DNA of 32,000 bases from Rhodocyclaceae bacterium. Its GTDB lineage: Bacteria > Pseudomonadota > Gammaproteobacteria > Burkholderiales > Rhodocyclaceae. This document shows positions 13,919 to 32,000 of the stretch, one piece after another. The stretch's first letter is position 1, and each line of letters begins with the position of its first letter. Under the pieces are notes generated by a model. That model did not search any database, was not told the origin of the DNA, and saw only the letters and a list, made by a program, of their open reading frames with translations. The translations under genes were made by a program, and so were the position numbers. The DNA lies in contig JADJAS010000007.1 in NCBI GenBank assembly GCA_016704145.1, forward strand, positions 48,565-80,564, given 5' to 3'.

Positions 13919-13929
13919 GTCTCGTCTCC

Positions 13930-14436: not shown

Positions 14437-14445
14437 GTTTCCCTC

Positions 14446-15864
14446 TCAGTCGATTCCGTATTCCGCCCAGCGGCCGCGTATCTTCGCCAGCATCGCCTCG
14501 TCCATGCGCGCCTCGACCGGCTTCTGCTTCCACTCGTAGGGAATGCAGGCGTCCATCAGGATGCGCGAGGTGGTGAGCTTGTCCGAGTTCGGGTCGAGCG
14601 CCGGATCGAGCGGGGTGGAGCGGCCACGCTTGATCAGCTCCGTGCCGCGCAACGGGTCGTAGCGGCATGACAGCGCCCAGAACACGCGCTGCAGGTCGTC
14701 GGCCATGATGTCCTCATCCACCGTGATGACACCCTTGATGCCGTAGGAGCCGGTGTTGCTGCCGATCACCGCGTCGGCGACCTGGCGCGAATGTCCCGGG
14801 TAGGACTGCTTGAGCGAGACGACGGCCCAGAAACGGCCGGCCGACTCGGGCAGCACGCAGACCGACTGCACGCCGGGGATCTTCATCTTCTCCAGTTCGG
14901 TCCACAGCGTCGCCGTGCGGGTGAAGGCGAGCAGCATGTGCACGTCGGTCACCGGGCGACCCTGGCCGGTGGCCCACAGCACGGAGTTGTTGCGGTGAAG
15001 GATCTGCTTCACCTCCAGCGCCGGCTTGAGGATCGGCTTGTGCAGTTCGTCGGTGTAGTAGCCGGTGTATTCGGCAAAGGGGCCTTCCTGGCGGAAGTTG
15101 TTCGGGTCGATCTCGCCTTCCAGCACGATCTCGGCGCCGGCCGGGACCGGCAGGCCGGTCAGCGGCGCCATCAGGAATTCGGCCGGCTGGCCGCGCACCG
15201 TGCCGGTGATGTCGAAGTCGTTGGCGCCCTTGTGCATCAGCGTGCCGGCCATGAAGATCAGCGGGTCGCAACCGATCACCGCGGCGGCCGGCATCTTCTT
15301 GCCCATCTTGGCGTACTTCTTCATGATCCGCTCACCACGCTTGCCCGGCAGAATCTGCACGCCGCAGGTCTTGTCGTCGAGCATCTGCATCCGGTAGGTG
15401 CCAAGATTGGTCTCGCCGGTCTCGGGGTCGCGCAGCACGACGAATACCATGGTGCCGATGTAACGACCGCCGTCGAGCGGAAAGAATTTCGGCACCGGGA
15501 ACATATTGAGGTCGACCTTGTCGCCGGCAAGGATGTTCTCCAGCACCGGGCCGTCCTTGACCTCCTTCGCCTTGATCAGTCCTTCGGAAGTGATGGTCTT
15601 CTTCATCCAGGCCTGGGCCGACTCGCACATCGACAGGTGGTGCGGTAGACCGAGCATGATGGCCAGGCGCTTGGTGGTGGCAAAGGCACCGGTGAACACC
15701 GGCGTGTCGTAGCCACTGACTTTCTCGAACAGCAACGCCGGGCCCTTGCGCTCCTCGGTCAACTTGGAGACATGCGATATCTCGAGGTTCCAGTCGACTT
15801 CTGTCGTGATCCGCCTCAGCTCGTTGGCCTCGTCACACTGATTGATGAAATAACGCAAATCCAT
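14446..15864 (-). CDS. ppcB: phenylphosphate carboxylase UbiD-like large subunit (about 53 kDa)
   Basis: 472-aa UbiD-family ORF (EGPFAEYTGYY). SD GAAGGAG lies before ATG 15864, 20 nt after the ppsC stop. Confidence 0.8.
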   Translation of the reverse strand: MDLRYFINQCDEANELRRITTEVDWNLEISHVSKLTEERKGPALLFEKVSGYDTPVFTGAFATTKRLAIMLGLPHHLSMCESAQAWMKKTITSEGLIKAKEVKDGPVLENILAGDKVDLNMFPVPKFFPLDGGRYIGTMVFVVLRDPETGETNLGTYRMQMLDDKTCGVQILPGKRGERIMKKYAKMGKKMPAAAVIGCDPLIFMAGTLMHKGANDFDITGTVRGQPAEFLMAPLTGLPVPAGAEIVLEGEIDPNNFRQEGPFAEYTGYYTDELHKPILKPALEVKQILHRNNSVLWATGQGRPVTDVHMLLAFTRTATLWTELEKMKIPGVQSVCVLPESAGRFWAVVSLKQSYPGHSRQVADAVIGSNTGSYGIKGVITVDEDIMADDLQRVFWALSCRYDPLRGTELIKRGRSTPLDPALDPNSDKLTTSRILMDACIPYEWKQKPVEARMDEAMLAKIRGRWAEYGID

Positions 15865-15884
15865 TGATGATGCTCCTTCTCGGG

Positions 15885-16583
15885 TTAGTGCTGTGTGTTG
15901 TCCGTCGTCGCCATCGGTCTCGTGGCCTGGACCGATTCGATCACCTGAAAGCCAGCTCGCTCGATCGCCGCCACGACCTGCCCGGTATCGTCACTGTGAA
16001 ACCGGATCACCACGCGCTTGAACGGATGTGTTCGCGGATTGACATCAGTCGGTTTGCCAATGGGATAGATCGCCTGCAGTTCGGCGCCGGCGGCTTCGAC
16101 GATGTCGGCAATCCGTCCGATCGTGCCGGGCTTGACATCCATCGGCGCCAAGGTGACACCGCTGCGTTTTTCCCAGGCGCTCAGGAAGTGGGCCGCCAGG
16201 GCGAACATCTCGTTCGCCGAGATGATGCCGACGACCCGGCCATCCTCCATCACTGGCAACTGGGCGATGCCATGTTCAATCCCCACTTCCAGGCAGTGCT
16301 CCATGGTGTCGGACGCCTGGATGGTGACCGGATTGCGCACCATCAGGTCCTTGACCTTGACGCGCGTCGAGAAGTAGTTCTGTTCGTCGGCATCCTGCGT
16401 TCGCAGGACATAGTGCGCGGCACGCAGACAAATCGCCCGCGTGATCAGTCCGCGCAGCCGGCCATCATCCACCACCGGCAGCCCGTGCAGATTGTTGTCC
16501 GTGATGATTTGTTTCGCCTCGTGCACCAGGGTGTCGCTGCCGACTACGATGGGGTTCCGTTGCATCCAGTTGCGTACCAGCAC
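15885..16583 (-). CDS. ppsC: phenylphosphate synthase stimulating subunit (CBS-pair plus ACT-like domain)
   Basis: 232 aa (about 24 kDa). Two CBS-like repeats (MQRNPIVVGSDT...GLPVVDDGRLRGLIT and MVRNPVTIQASD...QLPVMEDGRVVGIIS). GTG start at 16583 is preceded by AAGGGAGAA. Confidence 0.8.
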   Translation of the reverse strand: MLVRNWMQRNPIVVGSDTLVHEAKQIITDNNLHGLPVVDDGRLRGLITRAICLRAAHYVLRTQDADEQNYFSTRVKVKDLMVRNPVTIQASDTMEHCLEVGIEHGIAQLPVMEDGRVVGIISANEMFALAAHFLSAWEKRSGVTLAPMDVKPGTIGRIADIVEAAGAELQAIYPIGKPTDVNPRTHPFKRVVIRFHSDDTGQVVAAIERAGFQVIESVQATRPMATTDNTQH

Positions 16584-16595
16584 CGTCTTCTCCCT

Positions 16596-17711
16596 TCACA
16601 TGAGACGCTTGCCCGCCAGCAGGCTGGACACGATGTAATCCATCGCGGAAGCGGTCGCCGTGACCGTCGCCGCTGGCTGACGGTTGCTCCAGATCGTCTC
16701 GGGGCGTGCCTGGAGGATGTAGATGTTGCCGCCCGCCGGCAGCGCCTTGTCAACGGCCCACTCGATGTCCATCGGCCGGCCATAGTGCTTCTCGATTTTC
16801 TTGGCCATCCAGGCGAGCTCGGTAATTTCGTCGTCGATCAGGCACTGTATCGATTGCCGCTCGAAGGGCACTTCCGTCGCCACCGACTTCTGGACCCGGG
16901 GGTCGACCGTGTAACACATCAGTTTGGTGGAAATGGTCCGCTCCAGGATGTCCAGCGTCACCTTGTTCACCACGAAATGATCGGGCGTCACCTCACCCGA
17001 GACCACCGACTCGCCGAATCCGAAGTTGGCGTCGATGACGATCACCGAGCGATCGCCGGTCGCCGGATGCAAAGTGAACATCACGCCCGCCGCATAGGCA
17101 TTAGCCATCTTCTGCACGCCGACGCTGATCGCCACCTGATCGTGGGGGAAACCCATCTTCGAGCGATACGCAATCGCTCGCGCCGTGTAAAGACTGGAGA
17201 TGCATCGACGCACATGATGAATCACGTCGTCGAAGCCACGAATCCAAAGATAGGTGTCCTGCTGCCCGGCGAAACTGGCGCCCGGGAGGTCCTCGGCCGT
17301 GGCGCTCGAACGGATCGCCACCGGCACCGAGGCCTGGCAGCAGCGTACCGAAAGTTTGCGATAGGCCTCGCCGATCAGATCCTCCAGTTCGATCGACATC
17401 GGTCGCGACTCGATCATGTCCCTGATGGCGGCCGACGACTTCTCCAGGCGGTCGAGATTGTCGTGATCGAGCCCCTGCAACAGTCCGGCAATCTCGGACT
17501 GAATCCCCGCCGCGCGCATGAATTCAGCGAAACCCGCGGTGGTCAAGGCGAAGCCCGGCGGAACCCTCGCGCCCGAACTGATCAGTTCGCCCAGCGAGGC
17601 GCACTTGCCGCCAACGAGCGAAATCGAGTCCTTGGTGCATTCCTCGAACCAGCTGAGCAAGGGAATTTTCGTCGCCGCTTCGCCAGGCTTTGCGGCCAAG
17701 ACGGTAGTCAT
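16596..17711 (-). CDS. ppsB: phenylphosphate synthase beta subunit (PEP synthase N-terminal ATP-grasp-like)
   Basis: 371 aa (about 40 kDa). The GGKCASLGELISSGARVPPGFALT signature matches the PEP/pyruvate-binding N-domain of PEP synthase/PPDK. SD ACGGAGA lies before ATG 17711. Confidence 0.85.
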   Translation of the reverse strand: MTTVLAAKPGEAATKIPLLSWFEECTKDSISLVGGKCASLGELISSGARVPPGFALTTAGFAEFMRAAGIQSEIAGLLQGLDHDNLDRLEKSSAAIRDMIESRPMSIELEDLIGEAYRKLSVRCCQASVPVAIRSSATAEDLPGASFAGQQDTYLWIRGFDDVIHHVRRCISSLYTARAIAYRSKMGFPHDQVAISVGVQKMANAYAAGVMFTLHPATGDRSVIVIDANFGFGESVVSGEVTPDHFVVNKVTLDILERTISTKLMCYTVDPRVQKSVATEVPFERQSIQCLIDDEITELAWMAKKIEKHYGRPMDIEWAVDKALPAGGNIYILQARPETIWSNRQPAATVTATASAMDYIVSSLLAGKRLM

Positions 17712-17734
17712 GCGTCGTCTCCGTGGTTCGGGTG

Positions 17735-19570
17735 TCAGCGAACGATCGTGATGTGTCCGGACGAACCGTCCACACGCAGCGACATGCCGGACTTGATCAC
17801 CTTGGTCGCGTACCCGGTGCCGACCACCGCCGGCATGCCGTACTCACGGCACACAATGGCCGCGTGGCTCATGACGCCACCGACATCGGTGATACAGGCC
17901 TTGATCTTGGCGAATGCCGGAGCCCACGACGGCGACGTGGTTGGCGCAACGAGAATCTCGTCCTCCATCAGATCGCGAATTTCCTCGGCGCCGAAGCACA
18001 CCCGGGCCTTGCCCTCGACAATTCCCGGACTGGCGGCAAATCCCTTCATCTCGGTGATGCTGTCGGGGTCGCCGACATCCTGCACCGACGCCCAATCCGA
18101 CAGCGACTTGTTGGTGACACCCCATAGGACGATGGTGAAAGGTTCCTGGATGACTTCGGGAGCCACGCCGATGGCGGGAGGCGCCCGCCATTCGCGAAAC
18201 TTCTGCATCACACCCTTGCGCCACTCGATCTCGGTTGGCCACGTCTTGGTGCCCCGCGGTTTTACGCCAGTGGCCCAAGCCGTCACGATGTCCCACAGTG
18301 CCTGCTTGATTTCATCGCGCCGCAGGTACCAGATATCCTCGACATCGTCGAGAATGCCATGTTCCTTCATGACCGCGGCCACCTGCCGGATCTTGTTCCA
18401 GAAAACCGAATGGAACCAGTGCTCGACGTAGAAAAGATGGTTCTCGACGTAGGGAAAGACAGTCTTCGCGCAGCCAAGCAGTTCATCGAACTGTTGTCGG
18501 TCGGCCTCGTTGGCGATCAGTTCGCGATACTCGGCGGTGATGCGGTCGCGCTCGGCGCGGACTTGCTCCATGGGCCGGTCGATATTGGCGCCAGAACGAA
18601 TCTTGTTGATGTAGGTCTGGATCCCAGAAAGGGGAATGCCCAGATTGTCGTTCCAACTCCGATCCGTATGGAACCACCCGGTACCGGACGAGATATTGAA
18701 CCAAGGGTAACGCGCCTTCTCGAACGCCGCCAGCCATTCGGCGCCGCCAGGCGATCTGGCGACGGCCACCTTGACATCCTCCCATTCCCGATGCTCGGTA
18801 ACCGCTCGGTCGACTCCAAGCAGGATGGCCTTCTTGGCCAGCCCCTTGAGTTCGTCATCTGGCCTATACATGATGACATCGATGCCCGATATCATCTGCG
18901 TCACGCGCTGGAGCGGAATGCTCGGGAAAAGTTTCTGGGCAAAGTCCATGAAAAACACGTACGCGGCATAGCCCAGGTTGAGAAACTCGAAGTGGTACTG
19001 CCAGCACTTGATGCCCAGGTTGATCAGGTCGTCATAGTTCTTGATCAGGTGGTAGCCTCGCGACTCGCCGACGCCATCGGTGACGATGCTCAAGTCCTCG
19101 ACCTCGGGCAGACGGGGAATCTCCAGCGCTTCGAGCTCGGCGATGGTTGCCTCCATCTTGACCTTCCACTTGGCCTCGAGGTCATCCCAGTTCTTGTAGT
19201 AGTAACCCGCCCGCTCCATGAAGTTGGGTACACGCGCGCCAATCTCCTCGGGGTCGCGCACGGGCACGGGTGAAATGTAGACATAGCCGTTGATGATCCG
19301 GTGGTCGACCCCTCGCACCGGCGGAACTTGAAAGATGCGGTTGTTGAACTGAGACAAGGCGAGATACCACGCCTCGTCCCATATCGTGTCGAATGGATAC
19401 AGTGGCTCGGGATAATGCAATCCGTCGTAGAACCAGAACGTCTCCTTTTCGTAGCGGTTGCGCTCGGCGTCATCGGTGACAAACTGATACTGGTAGGGGT
19501 ACATGCGCTCCCATCCCTCGGTACCGGGAATGGTCTTCGCCTTGACGTCATGCGGATTGGGGAATTGCAT
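17735..19570 (-). CDS. ppsA: phenylphosphate synthase alpha subunit (PEP-utilising enzyme with phosphohistidine mobile domain)
   Basis: 611 aa (about 70 kDa) from ATG 19570 (MQFPNPHDVK), which is preceded by AGGAGGAGG. The C-terminal TDVGGVMSHAAIVCREYGMPAVVG is the phosphohistidine swivel-domain motif. The track start at 19621 lacks an SD. Confidence 0.85.
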   Translation of the reverse strand: MQFPNPHDVKAKTIPGTEGWERMYPYQYQFVTDDAERNRYEKETFWFYDGLHYPEPLYPFDTIWDEAWYLALSQFNNRIFQVPPVRGVDHRIINGYVYISPVPVRDPEEIGARVPNFMERAGYYYKNWDDLEAKWKVKMEATIAELEALEIPRLPEVEDLSIVTDGVGESRGYHLIKNYDDLINLGIKCWQYHFEFLNLGYAAYVFFMDFAQKLFPSIPLQRVTQMISGIDVIMYRPDDELKGLAKKAILLGVDRAVTEHREWEDVKVAVARSPGGAEWLAAFEKARYPWFNISSGTGWFHTDRSWNDNLGIPLSGIQTYINKIRSGANIDRPMEQVRAERDRITAEYRELIANEADRQQFDELLGCAKTVFPYVENHLFYVEHWFHSVFWNKIRQVAAVMKEHGILDDVEDIWYLRRDEIKQALWDIVTAWATGVKPRGTKTWPTEIEWRKGVMQKFREWRAPPAIGVAPEVIQEPFTIVLWGVTNKSLSDWASVQDVGDPDSITEMKGFAASPGIVEGKARVCFGAEEIRDLMEDEILVAPTTSPSWAPAFAKIKACITDVGGVMSHAAIVCREYGMPAVVGTGYATKVIKSGMSLRVDGSSGHITIVR

Positions 19571-19649
19571 CGTCTGCCTCCTCCTGGAGAACGTCGTTCG
19601 TCCGGGCCGATGAACGAACACTGGGTTGACTTTCCTGTCCTACCAACCA

Positions 19650-19664
19650 GCAAAGCCCATGCCA
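19650..19664 (-). promoter_or_regulatory. sigma54 (-24/-12) promoter of the pps/ppc operon
   Basis: The minus strand reads TGGCATGGGCTTTGC (GG-N10-GC spacing; consensus TGGCAC-N5-TTGC). It lies about 80 nt upstream of ppsA ATG 19570, and a sigma54 activator gene is divergent. Confidence 0.7.
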
Positions 19665-19833
19665 TGTCTCGTGCTGTGGCGCAACATGGGCGAACCCGGG
19701 CGAGCCCACCCGATACTGGTCAATCTTGACCATCAGACGATAGCCATCGGCGTGCACACGCAGCAACGTTGCTCGGAGTGTCGCGTTGCCACCAATGGGA
19801 CGATCGGGCGTGGCGGAAAAACTCGATTGTTGT

Positions 19834-19875
19834 ATTGATCAACTTTCCCGCGCCGGCGGCCATGAATTGATCAAC
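19834..19875. promoter_or_regulatory. two copies of ATTGATCAAC (palindromic core TTGATCAA) 32 bp apart; candidate enhancer-binding-protein UAS
   Basis: Exact 10-mers at 19834-19843 and 19866-19875. They lie 170 and 202 bp upstream of the -24 element, in the divergent pps / regulator intergenic region. Confidence 0.5.
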
Positions 19876-19944
19876 GGAGCAAGCGATGATCGAGCAACGG
19901 CTGACGGCAACGGAAAGCTCGGACGAAAATTGCTCGACCATGGC

Positions 19945-19973
19945 TTGACTTTGTAAGCCCCAGAAGTTATCAA
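19945..19973 (+). promoter_or_regulatory. candidate sigma70 promoter of the activator gene
   Basis: TTGACT (19945-19950), a 17-nt spacer, then TATCAA (19968-19973), about 30 nt before ATG 20004. Confidence 0.35.
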
Positions 19974-20003
19974 TCCACCTTTTCCAAGCAAGGCACGAAC
20001 GCC

Positions 20004-21758
20004 ATGGCGAAGGCTGGCGAGATCAGAACGGCGCCCCGCGAAGCGACGCGGTGGAAGAGCGAGGGTCTACGCGGGCGCTTGCGTTTCGGTGCGGAAAGCG
20101 GCCAGATCTGGCTTGACGAGCACCGAATGCTTCTCGTGCATGCCGAGGCGCAAGCTCTGCTGCGCAAGGAGCTCATCGATTCGCTGGGCATGGAGCGCGC
20201 TCGCGGTCTACTCACACGCATGGGCTTCGCTTCCGGGATGCGCGATGCGCAAATCGCTCGGGAGCGATTCGCCGATGCTAGCGACATGGATGCGTTCATG
20301 ACCGGCCCCCAACTGCATACGCTTGAAGGCATCGTTAACGTGACGCCGATCAAGGTCGAACTCGACCGGATGGCGGGGCATTTCTATGGTGAGTTTCTAT
20401 GGGAGGACTCGTGGGAAGGCCAATGGCACCGGCATTACTACGGCATCCATTCCGAGCCTGTCTGCTGGACGCAGATTGGCTATGCCTGCGGGTATACCTC
20501 CGCGTTCATGGGTCGCACGATCCTCTACAAGGAAGTCGAGTGCACCGGCATGGGCAGCAACAATTGCCGCATCGTGGGCAAGCCCATCGAGGAATGGCCG
20601 GATGCGGCGGAACATGCCAAATATTTCAGCCCAGACTCGATTGCCGAACAGCTGATTGATCTCCAGACGGAGGTAGTCCAGCTACGCTCAACCATTGGTG
20701 ACCGCCATCAGCACAGCGACGATGTGAGAGGCATTTCTCCTGGGTTCTTGGCCGCCTTCGAACTGCTGAAACAGGCGGCCGGCTGTAGCATCACCGTCTT
20801 GTTGCTTGGCGAGACAGGCGTTGGCAAGGAAGTATTCGCCCGAAGCCTGCACGACATGGGGCCCCGCCGCGACTCGCCGTTCGTCGCGGTAAATTGCGCG
20901 GCGATTCCGCATGACCTGGTCGAATCGGAACTCTTCGGCGTGGAGAAAGGCGCCTTCACGGGCGCGCAGCATACCCGCCCGGGCCGATTCGAACGTGCCA
21001 ACGGCGGCACCTTGTTTCTCGACGAAATAGGCGACCTACCCTTGGCCGCACAGGCAAAGTTGCTTCGCGTTCTTCAGGATGGCGAAGTGGAGCGGCTGGG
21101 TGATCAAAAGTTGCGCAAGATCAATGTTCGTCTCGTCGCCGCAACCAATGCCGGACTCCAAGGGCTCGTCAGGGAAGGACGATTTCGTTCCGACCTTTAC
21201 TACCGACTGAATGCCTATCAGGTCAAGATTCCGCCGCTACGCGAGCGCAAACAGGATATTCCGGTTCTAGCAAAGCACTTTCTGGCAAAGTACGCCGCCA
21301 TCAATGGGAAGAAACTTCGCGGCTTCACGGACAAGGCCAAGCGCGCCCTGCTTGCATATCGATGGCCCGGCAACATCCGCGAGTTGCAGAATATGGTGGA
21401 ACGCGGGGTGATACTGGCTCCCAACAGTGGTCAGGTAGAAGTCAACCACCTGTTTCTGTCCCACTGCGATGGCAGCGATCAACCGAGCGAATTCGAGTTC
21501 GGCCTCGCCAGTGATGGCGGCATCACCGGCACCCGCTGGGAAACGGGCGAGGATCTCTGTGACGCCGTTTTCAATGGCAGGATGACGCTCGACCAGGTGG
21601 AGGCGATGTTGCTGACCGCCGCCGTCGACAAGGCGCGTGGCAACTTGTCGGCGGCGGCGCGATTTCTTGGCATCACTCGAGCGCAACTCGCCTATCGGCT
21701 AAAACGGCTGCGGGCGGCCGAAGCCGAACTCGATGCGGAGATCGGTGTCTTCTCTTGA
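20004..21758 (+). CDS. sigma54-dependent transcriptional activator of the XylR/DmpR (phenol-responsive) family
   Basis: 584 aa. N-terminal XylR_N/V4R-type sensor (CWTQIGYACGYTSAFMGRTILYKEVECTGMGSNNCRIVGKP). AAA+ core with GETGVGKE Walker A, the GAFTGA sigma54-contact loop and FLDEIGDL Walker B. C-terminal Fis-type HTH (GNLSAAARFLGITRAQLAYRLKR). Confidence 0.9.
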   Translation: MAKAGEIRTAPREATRWKSEGLRGRLRFGAESGQIWLDEHRMLLVHAEAQALLRKELIDSLGMERARGLLTRMGFASGMRDAQIARERFADASDMDAFMTGPQLHTLEGIVNVTPIKVELDRMAGHFYGEFLWEDSWEGQWHRHYYGIHSEPVCWTQIGYACGYTSAFMGRTILYKEVECTGMGSNNCRIVGKPIEEWPDAAEHAKYFSPDSIAEQLIDLQTEVVQLRSTIGDRHQHSDDVRGISPGFLAAFELLKQAAGCSITVLLLGETGVGKEVFARSLHDMGPRRDSPFVAVNCAAIPHDLVESELFGVEKGAFTGAQHTRPGRFERANGGTLFLDEIGDLPLAAQAKLLRVLQDGEVERLGDQKLRKINVRLVAATNAGLQGLVREGRFRSDLYYRLNAYQVKIPPLRERKQDIPVLAKHFLAKYAAINGKKLRGFTDKAKRALLAYRWPGNIRELQNMVERGVILAPNSGQVEVNHLFLSHCDGSDQPSEFEFGLASDGGITGTRWETGEDLCDAVFNGRMTLDQVEAMLLTAAVDKARGNLSAAARFLGITRAQLAYRLKRLRAAEAELDAEIGVFS

Positions 21759-22213
21759 CCAGCGCACTTCGCGAGCGCGTGCTCGAACAACTCGCGGATC
21801 ATCACGTCCTCTCCCTGGCCACGACGGGCCCGGAAGGGCCGTGGGCCGCCGCGGTATTCTATGCGCATGATGGTTTGTCCCTCTACTTTCTCTCCTCTCC
21901 GACCAGCCGCCACGCCCTAAACATCGGCGCTGGCACGGAAGTGGCCGCCACGATCCAACACGACTACGATGACTGGCCAGGCATTCGCGGGCTACAGTTG
22001 CAAGGCCGCGCCGAACCCGTTGCCGCGCACGATGAGGCCGGGGTACGACAGCGATACGCCGCGCGTTTCCCCGTTATCGGGTTGTCCGCGAGGGCCCCGG
22101 CCGCGATCGTCCGCGCCCTGGATCGCATCCGCTGGTATGTCCTTTGTCCTCGCGCCATCTGGTTAATAGACAACAGGCGCGGATTTGCTCACCGCGAGCG
22201 ACTCGATGTGTAG
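21755..22213 (+). CDS. pyridoxamine 5'-phosphate oxidase (PNPOx) family FMN-binding protein
   Basis: 152 aa. ERVLEQLADHHVLSLATTGPEGPWAAAVFYAHDGLSLYFLSSPTSRH, then the GLQLQGRAEPV pattern typical of PNPOx-like split barrels. The TTG start overlaps the activator stop (TCTTGACC), and there is no in-frame ATG near the 5' end. Confidence 0.6.
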   Translation: MTSALRERVLEQLADHHVLSLATTGPEGPWAAAVFYAHDGLSLYFLSSPTSRHALNIGAGTEVAATIQHDYDDWPGIRGLQLQGRAEPVAAHDEAGVRQRYAARFPVIGLSARAPAAIVRALDRIRWYVLCPRAIWLIDNRRGFAHRERLDV

Positions 22214-22274
22214 GCGGCTTGCTTCATTCCCCCTCTTGCTTGGTTGGTGAAATTCCGGATTCTTGACGGGGAAA

Positions 22275-22320
22275 TTTGATCAAATCGTCAATCATTGGTC
22301 TTCCAATGATTGACGATTTG
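22275..22320. promoter_or_regulatory. TTTGATCAAA palindrome fused to a perfect 18-bp inverted repeat (4-nt spacer); candidate UAS/operator
   Basis: CAAATCGTCAATCATTGG (22281-22298), TCTT, then CCAATGATTGACGATTTG (22303-22320) are exact reverse complements. TTGATCAAATC spans 22276-22286. The element lies about 130-170 bp upstream of the sigma54 promoter at 22448. Confidence 0.55.
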
Positions 22321-22447
22321 TCGCCACTTCCTTCCAGTGTATCCAGAATCGCCGCCGAGGCTGTTCGAGCCCCACGCGCTCTTCGCCATCGACGCGTACT
22401 CGGCCTTTCGGTCGAGTGATCACAATATCGCACCGCACAACGACACC

Positions 22448-22462
22448 TGGCACGAGCCTTGC
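22448..22462 (+). promoter_or_regulatory. sigma54 (-24/-12) promoter, perfect consensus
   Basis: TGGCACGAGCCTTGC matches TGGCAC-N5-TTGC exactly. It lies on the + strand about 213 nt upstream of the BNR lipoprotein ATG at 22675. Confidence 0.7.
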
Positions 22463-22674
22463 GGACAGTGCCCGGTGAGTTGACGCGAATTCTCGGCCAA
22501 TACAACCGCCAGACCAACCACGATATCCATTCAAAGCCAAGCATGATCAAGGCAATGCGCCACCGCCAGCCTCATCCATCAACGGAGACTTCAATGGCGC
22601 CATGCCCCCAACTTTGTGTCGACGAGAACGTCGCAATTAGCGACATTGCCGCTTCTCGACACAACGGGGTGACG

Positions 22675-23612
22675 ATGAAGTTCATCATGCTCTGCCTGAC
22701 TGGTTTACTGCTGACTGGTTGCCGTGGTGTAACGGACCCATCGCAAGTGGCGATGGGGGGTGGGGAAGCGCTGAAGCGCTATGACGTGATACAGGCGCTG
22801 GGGTGGAATGGTGAGGTGATGGTGGGTGGGAGTCAGGCGGGGGCGGTGGTGGTATCGGCGGATGGTGGGAAGAGCTGGCGGCGGGAGAATTTGGTGGGGG
22901 CCAGTGTGATGGGTCTGGCGGCATGTCCGGACGGCGGGTTTGTCGGGATTGACTTCAACCACAAGGTTTGGAGTGGCGATCGGCAAGGTCAGGCATGGCG
23001 GAGCGCCGAGTTGGACAAGCCGCGGGTACCGCTGGCGGTCACCTGTGATGGTCGGGGCCGGTGGTGGGTGGTGGGGTCTGGGGCCAGGATAGCGGTCAGT
23101 GTTGACCGGGGAGTCAGCTGGACGGTGACTGACCTGCAAGAAGACGTTCAATTCACCACGGGCCCAGTTTGTTGATGACCGGCACGGTTTTGTTCTGGGC
23201 GAATTTGGTTACGTCGTGGTCACCGACGATGGCGGCGAGAGCTGGCGCAAGCTGAGCCAGATTCCGGGCGAGTTTACCCCTACGCCGCCCTCTTTCTCGA
23301 CCGCAACGAAGGCTTCGCCAGCGGCATCGCCGGGCAAATGCTGCATACCGTCGATGGGGGCAAGACCTGGAGCCGGATGGCCAACCCCAGCGGTGCGGCG
23401 CTCTACCGGCTGTTTCTGCACGAAGGCCGGCCTTATGGCGTTGGCGCCGGCGGTGTCATTGCCCGGCTGGAAGAAGGCCAATGGCGGTCGGTGCCGTACC
23501 CGGATGCCGTGCCGGCGTTTCTGGGTTCGGCGGCCAGCGTCGCGGGAGGCATCGTCATCGTGGGCCGGGCGGCTTGCGGGTCGTGGCGATCACGCCAGGA
23601 GCGGGCGCATGA
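22675..23612 (+). pseudogene. BNR-repeat / Ycf48-like beta-propeller lipoprotein, disrupted by three frameshifts
   Basis: Lipoprotein signal MKFIMLCLTGLLLTGC. BNR motifs SADGGKSW, SVDRGVSW, TDDGGESW and TVDGGKTW are spread over frames 1, 2, 1 and 3. Frame 1 stops at 23173-23178. The frame-3 end (GGLRVVAITPGAGA) stops at a TGA that overlaps the RND ATG as ATGA. Confidence 0.6.
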
Positions 23613-25891
23613 GTGGCGGTGGGCTGCGCCAGCGCATCACCCATGGCCTGCACGTTGGCGAGGAATGGCTGTTTGCCAATCCCAAGATCGTGCTTGGGCT
23701 GATTCTAGCCGCCACCCTGGCCTGGAGTCTGTTTCTGCCCAAGCTGCGGGTGTATTCCGACTTTGCCGACCTGCTGCCGCAACAGCATGCCTACATCACA
23801 GAGTACAACCGGATCAAGGAAGGCTTTGGCGGCGCCAACCAGATCGTCATGGCCATTGAAGTCGAGCAAGGCACCATTTTTAACGATGCCACGCTCAAGC
23901 TGGTGCATGAAGCCACCCAGGGGATGGACAACCTGCCCAGCGTCAACCACAACCTGGTGGCCAGCCTGACGCACCGGACCGCGCGCAAGGTCTATCTCAG
24001 CGCCGAAGGCAACTTTATGTCCGAGCCGTACTACGACCCGCTGAAGGGCAACCGGACGGCGGCCGAGTTCGAGCGGATGAAGAAGGACGTCATTGCCAAC
24101 CCCACCATCTACGGTCTTCTGGTCTCGCCCGATCTCAAGGCTGCGCTGATCAAGGCCCAGCTCAACGAAGCCGACCTCGACTACGTCAAGACCTTCGCCG
24201 AACTCCAGAAAGTGCGGGAAAGCCTGGCGCGGCCCGGGCACAAGATCCACGTCACCGGCAATCCCGTGCTCACCGGCTGGGTCTATACCTACCTCAACCA
24301 GATTCTGGGCATTCTGGCCTGCTCCCTTCCTCATTGCCGCCCGCGCCACCTCCCACGGCGTCCAGCTGGTGGCGCGCTACTACGAAGAACTGGCCAAGAC
24401 CCACCACGGCGCCAAGGCGGCGCGCAACGCCCTCGATGCCCTGTTCCGGCCGGGCAGTCTGGCCATCATCGTGGACGCGGTCGGCATAGCCGTGCTCATG
24501 CTGGGTGCCGCCCCCTTCAACCACAAGCTGGGTCTGGCGGCCGGCTTCTGGGGCTTCTCGGTCATCTTCACCGTGCACTTCATGGTACCGCTGGCGCTGA
24601 CCATCCTCAGCGCAGCCGCGGGAGATGGAGAACAAGAACGAAGGCGTGCGCAACCTGCTGGGCCGGGCCATGGCCATGACCGGCGGCACCGACGGTGGCG
24701 CGCGGGCCATCCTGGCCGTGGCGGCGCTGTGCGCCATTGGCGGCGGCTGGTTCATTGCCCGGGTGCAGCTGGGCGAATCCGAGGCGGGCAGCCCGCTGCT
24801 GCACCGGCACCACGACTACAACCGATCGACCCAGGCCATCAACACCCTGTTCCCTGGCTCCGAGGAATTGCACGTGGTGGCGCGTACCGACGAGAAGGGC
24901 GGCATCAAGCGGCCGGACGTCATGGCCGCCATCGAGCGCTTTCAGGCGCACATGCTGGCCGATCCCGGTCTGGGCGGCACCAAGGCCATTCCCGGGGTGG
25001 TGCGGGTGGTGGAACCGGCTGACCCACAACGACGACCCGCGCTGGATGCAGCTGCAGGACAATGCCGAGGAAGTGGGCGGCCTGATGTTTGCCTACATGG
25101 CCAGCAGTCCGATACCGGGGGCCCTGAAGGAATTCATCAGTCCCGACGAGAACGAAGCCAACATGGTGTTCTTCTACAAGGACCACCAGGCCGACACCAT
25201 CAACCGGGTGGTGGCCCTGGCCGAGGCGGGCATCAAGCAGATCGAGCGGGACGTGCCCGGGCTGCACATTGAACTGGGGGGCGGCATCATCGGCGTCACG
25301 GCGGCGGCCAACCAGGCCCTGCACCGGGACCACATGATCATCATCCCGGCGGTGATGATCCTGGCCTTTGCCCTGGTCATGCTGTACTACCAGTCGTGGC
25401 ACGCCGGCTGGCTGATGGTGTTGCCCATGCTGTTCGCCACGGTGATGACCTATGCCTACATGGGCGCCGCCCACATCGGCATCAACGTCAATACCGTGCC
25501 GGTGATCGCCGTCGGGGTGGGGGTGGGCATCGACTATGCCGTCTATTTCATGGACCGCATCCGCGAGGAAATGGCGGCCACCCGGAACATTCACCGGGCG
25601 GTGGTCAATGCGGTGGCCACCACGGGTTACGCCGTCTCGTTCACCGCGGCGACGCTGATTGCCGGGGTGATCATGTGGATATTTCTGTCGGACCTGCGGT
25701 TCCAGTCGGACGCGGCCATCCTGCTGTCGTTCATGCTGGTCGTCAATGCCATTGCCGCCATGCTGATCGTGCCGGCCTGGTGCGTCGTGTTCAAGCCGCA
25801 CTTCGTGGTGGCCACGCATTACGACGCGGATGGCGTGCTGGAGGAAGACGCGGCGAACGGTGGCGGTCTGGCGGGGGTGAAGGCGGGGTAA
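23609..25891 (+). pseudogene. RND-superfamily (MMPL/HpnN-like) inner-membrane transporter, disrupted by three frame changes and an apparent internal deletion
   Basis: The family-typical sequence reads in frame 2 (23609 to about 24318), frame 3 (to about 24610; PFLIAARATSHGVQLVARYYEE), frame 1 (to about 25015) and frame 2 (to TAA 25891; GVGVGIDYAVYFMDRIREE). The first half lacks about 55 aa (TM2-TM3) compared with the internally homologous second half. Confidence 0.6.
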
Positions 25892-25913
25892 ACCTTAGAG
25901 GAGGAGGACAGCG

Positions 25914-28091
25914 ATGAAGATCGAGCGGATGAACAGGAAGCGGATGGTGGTGGCGACGGCGCTGGCGCTGGCGGGACTGGGCTCGCTACCGGCGCGGGCG
26001 AACAACTTGCCGTCGCTGGGCGGCGATGTCGAGCCCTGGCGGGTCGATGTCTATTACGAGAACGACACGCGCTTCCGGGGCAAGGACAAGAGCGGGGACC
26101 GGGTCGGGCTGTCGAAGTTCAGGAACACCTTGCAGGTCGAGGCCGACAAGAAGGTGGGTGACGGCTGGGCGGTGCGGGGCATCCTGCGCGGCACCTGGGA
26201 CGGCGTCTATCGGCTCAACGAGGACGAATACGGCAAGGACGCCGGCAGCAAGACCGCGGCCGACGTGCGGATTCCCAACACGGCCGGGCCGGTGGCCCAG
26301 TCGGTGGGGCTGTTCGGGCCCCCCTCGCCCGTACATGTTCATTACGGTGCCACCGTGCCATTCGGCGGTGGGGTGGGCTTTACCGTGGTGGATGTCATCC
26401 AGGCCGGCGCGGGGCTGCCCAACTTGGGCGGACCGGGCGGCGGGCCGGGCGTGAACAAGTTCATCGATCCCAACTATGGCAACCTGGCGGCGCCGCCGGC
26501 CGTCTACGGCTCGGGCGCCGGCCTGCAACTCCTGGGTGAGCGCTGGAACCGGACCGGATCGGGCGTGGCCTTTGCCGTACCGGTGCGGCCGTGCGACAAG
26601 GACAAGCGCGGCTGCCGCGACTTTGGCGGCTATGGCGACAAGAAGCTCTCCGAACTGGAGGCGCCCGAGTTCAACGACCGGGCCGACTTCATTCGCGAAC
26701 TCTATGCCAAGAAGACCTTCGACCTGGCCGACGGCGGCAACTTCTTCCTCAAGCTGGGCCGGCAGCAGGTGGTCTGGGGCCGCACCGACCTGTTCCGCGT
26801 GCTCGACGTCATCAACCCGGTGGACTACTCGCGCAACAACATCTACGACGAGTTGCAGGACATCCGCATTCCGATGTGGATCGCCCAGGGCGAATGGCGG
26901 ATGGGTGGCTCGGGCAGCATGCAGGAGCGCAACCTGCAGGTGGTGTGGAACTTCGACAAGTTCCGGCCGAACAACCTGGGCCAGTGCGGCAGCCCCAACG
27001 TCATTCTCGACGCTGGCTGCTTCTTCCGCGGCATGGCCAATCTCTGGGACCACGGCGGCACGGTGGCCAACTTCGCCGGCTTCAGCGCCCCGGGCACCCC
27101 GGCGCCGGTCGATGGCGTCTGGTTCGCCACCAACTTCGGGCCGAACCAGATCGGCATCCGCAAGGTGCACCTGCCCGAATGGAGCCTGGCCAACACCCAA
27201 CTGGGGATGAAGTTCGAAGGCGTCACCCAGGGCGGCCTCAACTTCTCGGTCAATGCCCTGACCTATCGTTCGCAACTGCCGAGCCTGCGCTCGATCAACC
27301 AGGTGGCGATCAACCCCTTCACCGGCGCCCACGGCAACACGTCGCCGTTCTCCGGACCGGCCCAGGGCATTCCGACCACCAACCTGATCGCCTTCGACGT
27401 CTATTTCCCGCGCATCAACCTGATCGGCGGCTCCATGGACTTCCAGTCCGAGGCGCTGGGCGCAGCGTTCCGGCTCGAGGGCGCCCTGACCAAGGGCGAG
27501 GAATTCGCCAACACCGCCCGGCCGCGGCTCTACTCCGAGAACAAGGTGTTCCGTTCGGTGATCGGCGTGGACCGGCCGACCTTCATTCCCTTCATCAACC
27601 CGAACCGTACCACCCTGATCTCGGCGCAATTGTTCTACCAGCACATCTTCGACCACGAATCGAGGCGCATGCCGGGGGGCCAGGTCGGCATGCCCGACTG
27701 GAAGGACAACTATATCGGCACCCTCCTGATCAAGGGCTTCGTCATGAACGACCGGGTCAGCCCGACCCTGATCCTGGCCCGCGACTTCAGGGCCCGGGCC
27801 TGGGCGATCGCCCCCTCGGTGGAGTGGAACGTCACCGACGATCTCAAACTGACCTTCGGCGCCAACGTCAAGAACCGTGACGATCAGAGCCGCTGGGAGT
27901 TCGACGACTGCCGCTCCTGCAACCCCTACGCGCCCTACACCATGTACACCAACGGCGCCACCACCCAGGGCTTCACCCCGGGCTCGTTCGGCCTGTCCGG
28001 CATCGAGCCGCTCGGCCGCTTCCGCGCCGGCCCCATCGGCGCCGCCTGGAAGGAAAACGAGCTCTACGTCACCCTCAAGTACAAGTTCTGA
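25914..28091 (+). CDS. DUF1302-family outer-membrane beta-barrel protein
   Basis: 725 aa. SD GGAGGAGGA before ATG 25914. Signal peptide MVVATALALAGLGSLPARA. LKLGRQQVVWGRTDLFRVLDVINPVD is characteristic of DUF1302. The C-terminal LKYKF carries the terminal aromatic residue typical of OMPs. Confidence 0.75.
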   Translation: MKIERMNRKRMVVATALALAGLGSLPARANNLPSLGGDVEPWRVDVYYENDTRFRGKDKSGDRVGLSKFRNTLQVEADKKVGDGWAVRGILRGTWDGVYRLNEDEYGKDAGSKTAADVRIPNTAGPVAQSVGLFGPPSPVHVHYGATVPFGGGVGFTVVDVIQAGAGLPNLGGPGGGPGVNKFIDPNYGNLAAPPAVYGSGAGLQLLGERWNRTGSGVAFAVPVRPCDKDKRGCRDFGGYGDKKLSELEAPEFNDRADFIRELYAKKTFDLADGGNFFLKLGRQQVVWGRTDLFRVLDVINPVDYSRNNIYDELQDIRIPMWIAQGEWRMGGSGSMQERNLQVVWNFDKFRPNNLGQCGSPNVILDAGCFFRGMANLWDHGGTVANFAGFSAPGTPAPVDGVWFATNFGPNQIGIRKVHLPEWSLANTQLGMKFEGVTQGGLNFSVNALTYRSQLPSLRSINQVAINPFTGAHGNTSPFSGPAQGIPTTNLIAFDVYFPRINLIGGSMDFQSEALGAAFRLEGALTKGEEFANTARPRLYSENKVFRSVIGVDRPTFIPFINPNRTTLISAQLFYQHIFDHESRRMPGGQVGMPDWKDNYIGTLLIKGFVMNDRVSPTLILARDFRARAWAIAPSVEWNVTDDLKLTFGANVKNRDDQSRWEFDDCRSCNPYAPYTMYTNGATTQGFTPGSFGLSGIEPLGRFRAGPIGAAWKENELYVTLKYKF

Positions 28092-28109
28092 TCCAGGAGA
28101 TCCATCCCC

Positions 28110-29423
28110 ATGAAACTCAAACCCCTCACCCTCGCCTCCACCCTCGCCCTGGCTTCCACTATCACCTCCCTCGCCTCCGCCGCCACCGAGACGGAACTGG
28201 ACAATGCCTTCCATCCGTACAAGAAGGGTTTCCCGGCTTTCCCGGGACTCAATCCCGGTCTGGTCATCAACAAGGCCAATGTCGACCAGTTCAAGGACGC
28301 CCTCGATCCGGCCAACTACCAACTGGTCAAGGATGGCTGGTACGAAGTCACCGCGGTTCCGACCATCGACTTCCCCAACGCCAAGGGCTATGTTGAAGCA
28401 ACCAAGGCCCATTCGGGCAGCGTCAAGCTCGGCGGCAAGAACGGTGAAATCAGCGGTTACGTTGCCGGCCGGCCCTTCCCCGAGGAGCCGGATCTCAAGG
28501 ATCCGCGCGCCGGCGAGAAACTCGCCTGGAACTTCAAGTACGGCATCAACTGGGGTGACAACGCCGCCATCTATCCTTTCTACTGGCGCTATCGCAACGC
28601 CACCACCGGTCAGGTCGAACGGACCATCAAGTTCAATTTCCACTTCCTCAATTTCAAGCACCGCAACGACCATCCACCGATTCCGGAGGTGACGCCCAAT
28701 CCGTCGCAATTGTTCCGGGGTATCTACGTGCAGGTACTGGAGCCGCAGGACCTGAAGAACACCCAGCTGCTGATCCAGCGTTACGAGGACGACCTCAAGC
28801 TCGATGACGCCTACCTGTACCTGGGCTTCCAGCGCCGGGTACGCCGCCTGGCTACGGGGCAGACCACTGACGCCTTTCTCGGCTCGGACGTCATGATCGA
28901 GGATTTCGAGGGCTACAACGGTCGCATCTCGGACATGAAGTGGACCTTCCTCGGCACCAAGAACATTCTGATGCCCTACTACCGGGCCACCGACGTCAAG
29001 CGTACCGACGAGTTCAAGGATCCGGACGGCTACAAGTTCATCGATGTCGGCGGCAAGGGCAACTGTATGCCCACCATCGGCTGGCAGTTGCGCAAGGTGC
29101 ACATCCTGCAGGCCGAACCGGTGAATCCGAATCACCCGATCAGCAAGCGAGTCATCTACCTCGATGCCCAGGTCTTCGGCGCCTCGCGCACCTTGATCTA
29201 CGACCGCAAGGGCGAGCTTTGGAAGAGTTGGATGATCGGCAAGGCGCATCCCGACTTCCATCTGCCCATTAACAAGGGCACCGGCATCGCCCTCGACGAC
29301 TCCTTTTCCATGATCGACGTCCAGGCCAAGCATTGCACCACCGGCCAGTTCAAGGGGCAGGTCGATCCCAAACTCAATCCGCCCTCACTCTTCCAGGTGC
29401 AAAACCTCCGCAGCGGCGACTAG
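28110..29423 (+). CDS. DUF1329-family periplasmic (LolA-like fold) protein
   Basis: 437 aa. Signal peptide MKLKPLTLASTLALASTITSLASA. GRPFPEEPDLKDPRAGEKLAWNFKYGINWGD matches the DUF1329 N-terminal signature as I recall it. It lies 18 nt after the DUF1302 gene. Confidence 0.7.
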   Translation: MKLKPLTLASTLALASTITSLASAATETELDNAFHPYKKGFPAFPGLNPGLVINKANVDQFKDALDPANYQLVKDGWYEVTAVPTIDFPNAKGYVEATKAHSGSVKLGGKNGEISGYVAGRPFPEEPDLKDPRAGEKLAWNFKYGINWGDNAAIYPFYWRYRNATTGQVERTIKFNFHFLNFKHRNDHPPIPEVTPNPSQLFRGIYVQVLEPQDLKNTQLLIQRYEDDLKLDDAYLYLGFQRRVRRLATGQTTDAFLGSDVMIEDFEGYNGRISDMKWTFLGTKNILMPYYRATDVKRTDEFKDPDGYKFIDVGGKGNCMPTIGWQLRKVHILQAEPVNPNHPISKRVIYLDAQVFGASRTLIYDRKGELWKSWMIGKAHPDFHLPINKGTGIALDDSFSMIDVQAKHCTTGQFKGQVDPKLNPPSLFQVQNLRSGD

Positions 29424-29478
29424 CACAACCATTCTTCTGATCTTCTCCGACGCGTCTTCCAAAAAGCTGACGCTTCTC

Positions 29479-29507
29479 CGGGGGCCCTTGGGCCCCCGCT
29501 CTTTTTC
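29479..29507 (+). terminator. Rho-independent terminator after the DUF1329 gene
   Basis: The GC stem CGGGGGCC / GGCCCCCG surrounds CTTG and is followed by CTCTTTTTC (T-run 29502-29506). It lies 56 nt after the stop at 29423. Confidence 0.7.
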
Positions 29508-29615
29508 GCCACCCGGAGACCACGACCGGACCAGCCATGGCCTGTCGGACACCCTGCTAGAATTATTATCCGATCAATACCGTCGCCACCCGGCATCCAT
29601 CGAAGGCCACTCCTC

Positions 29616-30773
29616 ATGTCAGGCAACACTTTTGGCAGGCTGTATTGCGTGACATCTTTCGGGGAATCGCATGGACCGGCAATCGGCTGTGTCGTCGATG
29701 GTTGCCCGCCAGGGCTGGAGCTTTCCGAACCCGACATCCAGCGCGATCTTGACCGCCGAAAACCCGGGACCTCGCGTCACGTGACGCAGCGACGCGAACC
29801 CGACCGGGTGGAAATCCTTTCCGGAGTCTTCGAGGGCAAAACCACCGGGACACCGATCGCGTTGCTGATTCGCAACGAGGACCAGCGCAGCCGTGATTAT
29901 CGGGAAATCGCCGAGACCTTCCGTCCCGGTCACGCCGATTACACCTATTGGCAAAAGTACGGCATCCGCGACCACCGTGGTGGCGGTCGAGCCTCCGCGC
30001 GCGAAACCGCCGTGCGCGTCGCGGCCGGTGCCATCGCCCGCCAGTGGCTGTCGAAAAGATTCGGCATCGAGGTCCGCGGCCACATGACGGCGCTGGGCGA
30101 TCTCGAAATCCCTTTTCGCTCCTGGTCGCACGTGCACGACAATCCATTCTTTGCGGCTGAACCAGATGTTGTTCCCGAGCTTGAGGCGTGCATGGATCGC
30201 CTGAGGCGAGAGGGAGATTCAATCGGCGCCGGGGTACGGGTAGTCGCCAGTGGCGTGCCAGTCGGCTGGGGCGAACCCGTCTATGACCGTCTCGACGCCG
30301 ACATTGCCTCGGCCATGATGGGCATCAACGCGGTCAAGGGTGTTGAGATCGGCGCTGGCTTTGCCAGTATCCGGCAGCGTGGTAGCCAGCACGCCGACGA
30401 ATTGTCACCCTCCGGCTTTCTCGGCAATCATGCCGGCGGTATTCTTGGTGGCATTTCCACGGGACAGGACATCGAGGTTGGTCTTGCGGTCAAGCCGACA
30501 TCCAGCATACGCATCCCGCGGCGGACCATCGACAAGGCGGGTCATGCCGCGCTGATATCGACCGAAGGTCGTCATGACCCTTGTGTCGGCATTCGGGCCG
30601 TGCCGGTTGCCGAAGCCATGATGCTGATCGTGCTCATGGACCACGCGCTGCGCCATCGCGCGCAGTGCGCCGACGTCCGATGCCCCACCCCGAAGATTGC
30701 GCCGGGCACCGGCGGTCCTGCCGCCGGCCCGATGGAAACCCGGCACGATCCCGAACCCGAGGAAGATGCCTGA
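29616..30773 (+). CDS. aroC: chorismate synthase
   Basis: 385 aa. [47 protein letters not shown] and [18 protein letters not shown] are classical AroC signatures. Confidence 0.95.
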
Positions 30774-30790
30774 ATCGCACGATCGAAGGA

Positions 30791-31252
30791 TCAACGCTTC
30801 TCGGGAAATATTTTTTTCAGCAGTTTCACCAAGGTTTGCCGCTCCGTCGGACTCAGCGTGGCGACCAGCCGTTTCTCGTGCTCGCCGACCCTCTGCTTGA
30901 TCCTGCGCAGCAAGGCCGCGCCGTCACTCGTCAGGCGCAAGGCGTTGGATCGCCTGTCATTGGGTGCGGCGCGGCGCTCGACCAGACTTCGGCGCTCGAG
31001 ATTGTCGATGACCGACACCACGGTCGAGCGGTCGAGATGTGTCGCCCGCGCCAGTTCGCTCTGCTTTAGATCGGGGTTGGCTTCGATGATCACCAAGACA
31101 CCAAAAAGACCCGGTGTCATGTCCAGATCACCGATGCTCTCGGAAAAATCCTTGAACATCGCGATCTGAGCCATGCGCAGTTGGAAACCGACCAGTTCTG
31201 GCAGTAACCCCAGCGAAATGCTGGTCGGCGAAACCTTCTTCATGGCAGACAA
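30791..31252 (-). CDS. MarR-family transcriptional regulator
   Basis: Winged-helix core QSELARATHLDRSTVVSVIDNLERRSLVERRAAPNDRRSNALRLTSDG. The track start at 31252 is TTG. ATG 31243 (MKKVSPTS) is an equally plausible start. Confidence 0.85.
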   Translation of the reverse strand: MSAMKKVSPTSISLGLLPELVGFQLRMAQIAMFKDFSESIGDLDMTPGLFGVLVIIEANPDLKQSELARATHLDRSTVVSVIDNLERRSLVERRAAPNDRRSNALRLTSDGAALLRRIKQRVGEHEKRLVATLSPTERQTLVKLLKKIFPEKR

Positions 31253-31281
31253 GTGCGCGTCACTCCCGTCGATACCAGCTC

Positions 31282-32000
31282 TTAGCCCGCCAGAGCGGTC
31301 TTGATCTGCTCCAGCGTCGACGGATCGTCGATGGTGGTCAGGTCGCCCGGATCACGGCCCTCGGCCAGTGCCTGGATCGATCGGCGCAGCATCTTGCCCG
31401 AGCGCGTCTTCGGCAGGCCACTGACGAAATGCACGTGCTTGGGCCGGGCGATGGCGCCGAGGATGCCGTCGACGGTCTTCTTCACTTCGGCTTCCAGCGC
31501 CGCGCGCAGTTCGGGCGTGGCGGTCCTGGCCGCATCCTTGACGACGGCGAAGGCCATCGGCTCCTGACCCTTCAACTGGTCATTGACGCCGACCACCGCA
31601 ACCTCGGCGATGGCCGGATGCGCCTGCACGGCCTCCTCGATTTCGCGCGTGCCGAGGCGGTGGCCGGCGACGTTGATGACGTCGTCGGTGCGGCCAAGGA
31701 TGAAGTGATAGCCCTCCTCATCCTTGATGCCCCAGTCGAATGAGCTGTAGACCAGCGGATCCTTGAACAGGCTGAAATAGGTGCTGACGAAGCGCTCGTC
31801 CTGGCCCCAGACGGTGGACAGGCAGCCCGGCGGCAGCGGCGGCAGCACGCCGACGATGCCCTTCTCGTTCGGCGCGCACTCACTGCCGTCCTCGCGGAAG
31901 ATTTTCAGGTCGTAGCCGAACACCGGGAAGCTCGGTGTGCCGAACTTGATCTTGGTCTTCTCGATGCCGGGCACCGACGACAGCATCGGCCACCCGGTCT
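31282..32000 (-). CDS. acyl-CoA synthetase (propionate/acetate-CoA ligase family), C-terminal part; 5' end beyond the window
   Basis: ILGRTDDVINVAGHRLGTREIEEAV and the C-terminal SGLPKTRSGKMLRR are ACS/PrpE-type motifs. The frame stays open upstream of the track ATG (31986) to the window edge. Confidence 0.8.
   Translation of the reverse strand, partial: TGWPMLSSVPGIEKTKIKFGTPSFPVFGYDLKIFREDGSECAPNEKGIVGVLPPLPPGCLSTVWGQDERFVSTYFSLFKDPLVYSSFDWGIKDEEGYHFILGRTDDVINVAGHRLGTREIEEAVQAHPAIAEVAVVGVNDQLKGQEPMAFAVVKDAARTATPELRAALEAEVKKTVDGILGAIARPKHVHFVSGLPKTRSGKMLRRSIQALAEGRDPGDLTTIDDPSTLEQIKTALAG

Follow-up and report, generated by a model that had tools for sequence, protein, structure and literature searches.

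Six clustered frame breaks in the BNR and RND genes of a Rhodocyclaceae metagenome-assembled genome: probable consensus errors in a four-gene transporter cassette

The window analyzed here, 32,000 nt of contig JADJAS010000007.1 from a Rhodocyclaceae bacterium (GenBank assembly GCA_016704145.1), contains two adjacent genes on the + strand that are broken in frame: a BNR/Ycf48-like (AmeC-like) lipoprotein gene at 22675..23612 and the gene of an MMPL/RND (HAE3, AmeD-like) inner-membrane transporter at 23609..25891. The six breaks are very probably local consensus or assembly errors of one Nanopore-based metagenome-assembled genome (MAG) and not mutations of the organism. They are real in the deposited sequence but almost certainly not in the living organism, in which the lipoprotein and the pump are most likely intact. 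The assembly, JADJAS000000000, is MAG AalW_18-Q3-R10-53_BATAC.909 (Rhodocyclaceae g__Fen-999, 7 contigs; PMC8012365, Supplementary Data 3), for which Illumina coverage of 12.9x, Nanopore coverage of 16.3x and a polymorphic rate of 0.9% were reported (PMC8012365). In the pipeline of that study, Nanopore reads were treated with CANU, Racon and medaka, followed by Racon with Illumina reads (PMC8012365, Singleton et al. 2021).

Placement of the lesions and comparison with conspecific assemblies

The region 22675-25891 could not be read as two open frames, and six frame switches were needed to recover the BNR and RND proteins. An earlier interpretation made from the letters alone (the sequence-only reading) had arrived at this count, and it was confirmed by three-frame translation, by tblastn with an intact orthologue and by DNA alignments. 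Positions were taken from alignment of the window with four intact orthologous loci, by which each of the six events was placed. With the best intact relative as query (P0001, 810 amino acids (aa)), tblastn recovered the RND gene as four segments in frames 2, 3, 1 and 2, and residues ~240-287 of the query had no counterpart in the window. The joined segments matched more than 1,300 MMPL/RND relatives with PF03176 in a protein database search. Among the matches listed, these relatives measured 796-845 aa, with one exception of 770 aa, while ~757 aa were recoverable in the window, where the gene has 761 codons versus 810. The BNR gene, queried with orthologues from the fetched loci, was read in frames 1, 2, 1 and 3. 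It was supported by these tblastn matches, by a lipobox (MKFIMLCLTGLLLTGC) read directly in the sequence and by PF14870 (PSII_BNR) and PF02012 in the repaired protein. An ATGA overlap, also noted in the sequence-only reading, joins its end to the RND start at 23609-23612. The further claim of 26 other intact coding regions was consistent with their open reading frames, Pfam matches and conspecific gene lengths.

Three lesions lie in the BNR gene. The first (23160..23163) is a surplus G at 23160, next to a T>C change at 23163, in the context CACCAC[G]GGCCCAG (conspecific ACGGTCCAG, window ACGGGCCCAG). Frame 1 then runs into TGA TGA at 23173-23178, exactly as first read, and this lesion was not found in 80 other-species orthologues. 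The second is a T lost from a TTTT run, leaving TTT (23271..23274, at ~23273; GAGTTTTAC > GAGTTTAC). The frame change had been placed closely, at 23265-23272, with the actual loss at 23272-23274. The third is a G lost at 23559-23560 (23558..23561; ATCGGTGGG > ATCGTGGG). Here the frame change stood, but the C supposed to be missing from 23567-23575 did not; the lost base is a G some 10 nt upstream.

The remaining three are in the RND gene. At 24321..24322 a net 152-nt deletion, with an adjacent T>C, has removed ~51 codons (transmembrane helices TM2-TM3). In the window, CT replaces 154 nt of the conspecific sequence, the lost part being WTLALLATLLIVYFRRLYGIALPLLGIALSSIWGLGFMALMGINLEPLSLPI, a segment present in every conspecific assembly and in all orthologues. 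The sequence-only reading had noticed the frame change near 24318-24325 but had overlooked the deletion; the event is no point indel. A clean microhomology-mediated deletion was considered for this junction and rejected: the junction is untidy, with CT in place of 154 nt, and the GCCTG/CCCTG repeats nearby are out of register. The fifth lesion is an extra base with two adjacent substitutions at 24608..24610 (CCTGCCGCAG > CCTCAGCGCAG; CCT-GCCGCAG in conspecifics), a site that is not a homopolymer. The sixth, an extra G at ~25011 (25009..25012; GTGGTGAAC > GTGGTGGAAC; conspecific form GTGGT-GAAC), had been predicted as such at 25012-25020 and was confirmed at 25009-25012. The net change in the RND gene is -150 nt, which leaves its first and last segments in a common frame. 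The view that the indels lie mostly in G/C homopolymers held in part; a T run holds one of them, another is complex and non-homopolymeric, and a third is the 152-nt deletion.

Two further changes were found in the RND gene. In a substitution cluster at 23799..23803, 4 of 5 nt are changed (AAGGTA > ACAGAG), turning KV into TE. A private C>A at 25056 turns a proline codon, conserved throughout the 79 other-species orthologues aligned, into one for Gln.

Distant orthologues alone did not serve as a test of decay. The closest other-species relative (L003) is only 84-89% identical, too distant to separate recent lesions from errors, and conspecific assemblies were therefore needed. These were collected by exact-protein look-up with the DUF1329, NUDIX and PNPOx-like proteins of the window; the DUF1329 protein has an exact copy in many assemblies. 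The same look-up with the DUF1302 protein of the window gave no match. The lesion check drew on L081-L084, L089 and L101-L107, whose identity to the window is 98.7-99.8%.

Against nine conspecific sequences from this range of identity, each of the six lesions was private to the window, and none (0/6) was reproduced in another assembly of the lineage. At the five sites other than the deletion, the conspecifics read GGT, TTTT, GG, CTGCCG and GTGAAC, the sole exception being JADJNG, with TTTC for TTTT. An 810-aa RND gene was called in four assemblies: L106 (SPAdes), L107 (megahit), L089 (short-read contigs) and L083, a 3.24-Mb contig not classed as short-read. A 339-aa BNR gene was called in L083, L106 and L107, and L089 has its 3' part only. 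L107 carries the window alleles at 26490, 26501 and 26507, yet both of its genes are intact. The sequence-only reading had stated that re-sequencing that restored single open frames would mean assembly errors; with the RND gene in a single open frame in four independent assemblies, this has in practice been observed. An apparent frame structure like that of the window, its other proposed counter-test, was found in none of 80 other-species loci and nine conspecific sequences.

Apart from the 23799-23803 cluster and one or two further changes, the coding sequence between the lesions is that of the intact conspecific gene. Inside 23100-25060 there are six indel events and ~10 private substitutions, most of which touch an indel or lie in the 5-nt scramble. 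Across both genes only the change at 25056 is isolated and truly private, that at 23102 being common to L104. Scattered substitutions of the kind expected alongside indels under relaxed constraint were thus not found in either gene, and six indels against one or two isolated private substitutions make a spectrum unlike that of evolution. A mosaic of source lineages was also considered and rejected, as identity to L003 and L001 follows general gene conservation and not the break points.

Clustering of the lesions and the sister genomes

The lesions are clustered far beyond chance. All six events fall inside 1.85 kb of the ~28 kb compared, and given the first, the chance of the other five falling in the same span is (1.85/28)^5, or ~1e-6. 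Against the short-read conspecific L092 the window showed no gaps over 1-14227, and against conspecific contigs no private indels were found in 18261-32000 outside 23160-25011. The window is also 100% identical to L096-L098 over 6-8 kb. The DUF1302 and DUF1329 genes, which follow the RND gene, carry no lesions versus six in BNR and RND, over spans of similar length.

Six MAGs of the JADI, JADJ and JADK series were compared: the window, JADIZH, JADJCC, JADJNG, JADJZK and JADKHB. The accession link to the PMC8012365 study was confirmed for JADIZH and JADJAS, and the other sister MAGs appear to come from the same pipeline. In none of the six (0/6) is RND a single 810-aa gene. The five sister MAGs each have different private 1-2-nt indels of their own in these genes, mostly in G/C runs. 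The genes are therefore broken in 6/6 of these MAGs versus 0/4 of the other assemblies (Fisher p = 1/210). Errors thus appear to follow assembly technology or pipeline, and the lesions of the window are private and absent from independent assemblies of the lineage. The spectrum is typical of the platform, with the 152-nt deletion and the change at 24608 as atypical members.

Indels in G/C runs of the sister MAGs were located at 23107, 23355/6, 25120, 25276, 25519, 25664 and 26319. The G6 run at 25276 was hit in three MAGs, and the G5 run at 23355/6 had gained a base in one MAG and lost one in another. The non-homopolymer site ATCAAGGTATACAAC at 23799-23804 was disturbed in five of the six long-read MAGs (window, L101, L103, L104 and L105), with outcomes that differ per MAG (substitutions, -1, -2, -1 and +1), while three short-read contigs and L083 agree with one another.

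JADJZK (L084/L105) has five private substitutions at window positions 25156-25174, where a 19-nt stretch equals that of Zoogloea orthologues and is identical in four Zoogloea genomes (L018, L028, L043 and L045). It represents either contamination of the consensus by foreign reads or a short recombination tract. The stretch indicates that the consensus in the conserved RND gene can absorb reads of other species. 

Several smaller differences were seen among the conspecific sequences. In L091 (JADIZH), compared with window positions 1-19838, genes were called at 435 aa for 457 and 218 aa for 258, and one FAD oxidase was uncalled; the residual errors of JADIZH are thus not confined to the transporter genes. 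At 22217, between genes, a GCTT tandem unit occurs in one copy fewer in two assemblies, L104 (long-read) and L107 (short-read), and the difference in length seems to be a real polymorphism. The RND protein P0003, from a 3.9-kb contig in ENA, is 99.2% identical to that of L083, with three in-frame differences, namely deletions of 16 and 32 aa and an insertion of 8 aa, which are either another assembly problem or real length variation.

Consensus error weighed against real lesions

As an account of the errors, ~2 kb of the window (23100-25060) would have retained errors of the long-read draft, namely single-base indels, substitution clusters and the 152-nt drop-out, while the flanks were polished cleanly. 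On the simplest account, the stretch would have been missed by short-read polishing or built from very few long reads. Changes of ±1 in G/C runs are the usual error of older Nanopore chemistry. The window resembles other cases of residual indel and frameshift errors in older-chemistry Nanopore MAGs whose short-read polishing was incomplete, in that its lesions are private, single-base and partly homopolymeric, the genes are intact in short-read contigs and L083, and sister MAGs that look to be of the same pipeline carry analogous private errors. It differs in that the errors are packed into ~2 kb of a clean 32-kb window, in the 152-nt deletion and the non-homopolymer scrambles, and in that the same genes are hit in all six MAGs of the species; homopolymer content alone accounts for none of these features.

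Several observations weigh against consensus error. The evidence consists of assembled consensus sequences, which leaves a small chance of a real strain-specific lesion, and Nanopore consensus errors do not typically take the form of a 152-nt deletion. Polishing clearly worked elsewhere in the window, and three candidate causes of a local failure fell away. Homopolymer density is ordinary here and not clearly raised across 23-25 kb. Methylation of GTATAC, considered for the trouble at 23799-23804, failed because another GTATAC, at 20492, shows no errors in any of the MAGs. A foreign-species origin of the reads was not shown for the window, as none of its variant k-mers matched any of 80 orthologous loci of other species; JADJZK alone showed a foreign stretch. 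In addition, the platform of L083 is not established, and the in-frame length variants of the conspecific protein P0003 affect this gene as well.

The sequence-only reading had left gene decay and a locally poor assembly side by side. The intact conspecifics and the private lesions favor the poor assembly and not decay. Real strain-specific pseudogenization, by which the Aalborg West population would have lost RND and BNR through the 152-nt deletion and then through further indels, is improbable. It would explain why the lesions stand in the deposited sequence when the remainder of the window is well polished, so that real variants would survive there, and why a deletion untypical of base-calling error is among them. 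The Pro>Gln change at the conserved proline (25056) and the KV>TE replacement would likewise fit relaxed constraint. The frames are disrupted relative to intact orthologues, and multiple frameshifts with an internal deletion are what true bacterial pseudogenes show. Nevertheless, the lesions of true pseudogenes are inherited by close relatives, accompanied by substitutions and reproducible by independent sequencing, and none of this was seen here. Six indels in 1.85 kb at ~0.2% divergence from intact conspecifics is far above neutral decay, and no matching excess of isolated substitutions goes with them. The DUF1302 and DUF1329 genes would then be equally useless, yet theirs are the clean spans. 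Five sister MAGs have different lesions in the same genes, short-read contigs and L083 have none, and the recurrent sites with differing outcomes point to error, not inheritance.

A wider form of gene loss is distinctly improbable. The lesions would be real, and the Fen-999 populations of six Danish treatment plants would independently have inactivated the pump, and often BNR too, while keeping the outer-membrane and LolA-like parts. The locus would then be hypermutable, and the three short-read contigs and L083 would represent intact co-resident strains. Should this be so, the pump would have been inactivated in parallel in several plants, an example of adaptive gene loss that would be of modest interest.

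The chance of a real mutational or recombinational hotspot, with plant-specific inactivating alleles produced by slippage in G/C runs, by patchy recombination with co-resident Rhodocyclaceae or by parallel selection for loss, is slim. Lesions are concentrated in 23100-25900 in all six long-read MAGs, the Zoogloea-identical stretch of JADJZK could be a recombination tract, and the length variants of P0003 lie in the same gene. Nevertheless, the genes are intact in all four other assemblies, among them three short-read ones, which would be unlikely if disrupted alleles dominated in natural populations, and the split tracks assembly type and not geography or strain. The scrambles at 23799-23804 are non-homopolymeric and differ between MAGs, and most lesions are ±1 changes in G/C runs.

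Programmed recoding, by ribosomal frameshifting or transcriptional slippage to full-length proteins, can be dismissed: although the net -150 nt keeps the outer RND segments in a common frame and some shifts fall in short runs, the shift sites are not conserved (0 shifts in 80 other-species loci and nine conspecific sequences), there is no conserved slippery site, ~51 codons with two transmembrane helices are simply absent, and we know of no precedent for six shifts across two genes.

If the breaks are consensus errors, they hold no biology and their value is practical. The deposited genome is the species representative in the original study and reports two phenol-associated transporter genes as broken. 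Any pseudogene or gene-loss inference from this MAG or its sisters would then be wrong. On that reading, residual errors in hybrid-polished long-read MAGs can cluster strongly and can strike one and the same conserved gene in all MAGs of a species, so that a clean flank is no guarantee for a locus.

The four-gene cassette and its surroundings

The two broken genes are followed by two intact genes on the + strand. The first, at 25914..28091, encodes a DUF1302 outer-membrane protein (AmeA-like; PF06980) of 725 aa, as in conspecifics, and the second, at 28110..29423, a DUF1329/LolA-like periplasmic protein (AmeB-like; PF07044 and PF17131). The RND/MMPL pump (PF03176, ~800 aa; 810 aa in conspecifics), the Ycf48-like/BNR protein beside it (PF14870 and PF02012, with the ATGA overlap) and the DUF1302 and DUF1329/LolA-like proteins thus stand in one cassette. 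By its gene content this would be an ordinary AmeABCD-type four-component HAE3 RND cassette.

The AmeABCD four-component HAE3 RND system was described in Castellaniella defragrans (PMC6394551). In both systems a single cassette unites the same four families, with an RND/MMPL pump of the HAE3 type that measures ~790-810 aa, and adjoins catabolic genes for a hydrophobic or toxic substrate. They differ in gene order, which here is BNR-RND-DUF1302-DUF1329 and not ameA-B-C-D. Here the neighbors are pps/ppc genes of anaerobic phenol degradation and a XylR-type sigma-54 activator, and not monoterpene genes. The neighboring phenol genes and the C. defragrans system (PMC6394551) suggest that the present cassette may export a hydrophobic substrate or confer tolerance to it. 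A DUF1302/DUF1329/BNR/RND set of Pseudomonas showed co-fitness on Tween 20 and fatty esters (bioRxiv 10.1101/2020.07.04.188060). It has the same four families and a proposed joint action at the cell envelope, but in P. putida the genes are split between two operons, and the roles proposed, export of an envelope component or esterase activity, are tentative.

Two copies of the BNR-RND-DUF1302-DUF1329 cassette were found on separate contigs in some relatives (L007/L019 and L072/L073), and paralogues could thus also confuse read mapping in this gene family. 

The base composition of the cassette is uneven. A strong bias of G over C was seen at 22675-23160 and at 25801-26200, the latter patch spanning the RND/DUF1302 junction, and GC skew rises to +0.55 at 22801-23000. 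In the 5' half of BNR, G makes up 50% and C 20% of third codon positions, while C is favored in most other genes of the window. The bias is common to all conspecific assemblies and is therefore real sequence, not error.

Upstream of the cassette, a complete-looking anaerobic phenol-degradation cluster occupies 9844-19621 on the - strand, divergent from a XylR-type activator gene. It encodes three subunits of phenylphosphate synthase (PEP-utilizers, PPDK_N and CBS) and, for phenylphosphate carboxylase, UbiD-type subunits, an 88-aa gamma subunit and a HAD subunit. A further UbiD, a UbiX-like protein and a CTP-dependent riboflavin kinase are also in the cluster. Other genes of the window encode two 4-cresol-dehydrogenase-like FAD oxidases, an aldehyde dehydrogenase, CoA ligases, chorismate synthase (MBK6553746.1) and a MarR regulator.

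The XylR/DmpR-type sigma-54 activator gene (20004..21758, + strand; XylR_N, V4R, Sigma54_activat and HTH_8) lies just upstream of the cassette. A sigma-54-like -24/-12 element, TGGCACGAGCCTTGCG, was located at 22448..22463 on the + strand, ~210 nt upstream of the BNR start; it is TGGCAC-N5-TTGC-like with one mismatch. A second one-mismatch match is at 19649-19664 on the - strand. The two sites lie in the intergenic regions flanking the activator gene and are directed toward the BNR-RND cassette and the pps operon, respectively. Since sigma-54 matches in the window are no more numerous than in shuffled sequence, these elements are a lead only. A sigma-54 promoter controlled by the neighboring XylR-type activator probably drives the cassette, which lies beside the pps/ppc genes. 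In addition, a perfect 17-nt inverted repeat with a 4-nt spacer (AAATCGTCAATCATTGG ... CCAATGATTGACGATTT; 22282-22298/22303-22319) lies ~130 nt upstream of the sigma-54-like element and may be a binding site of the activator or a hairpin after the upstream gene.

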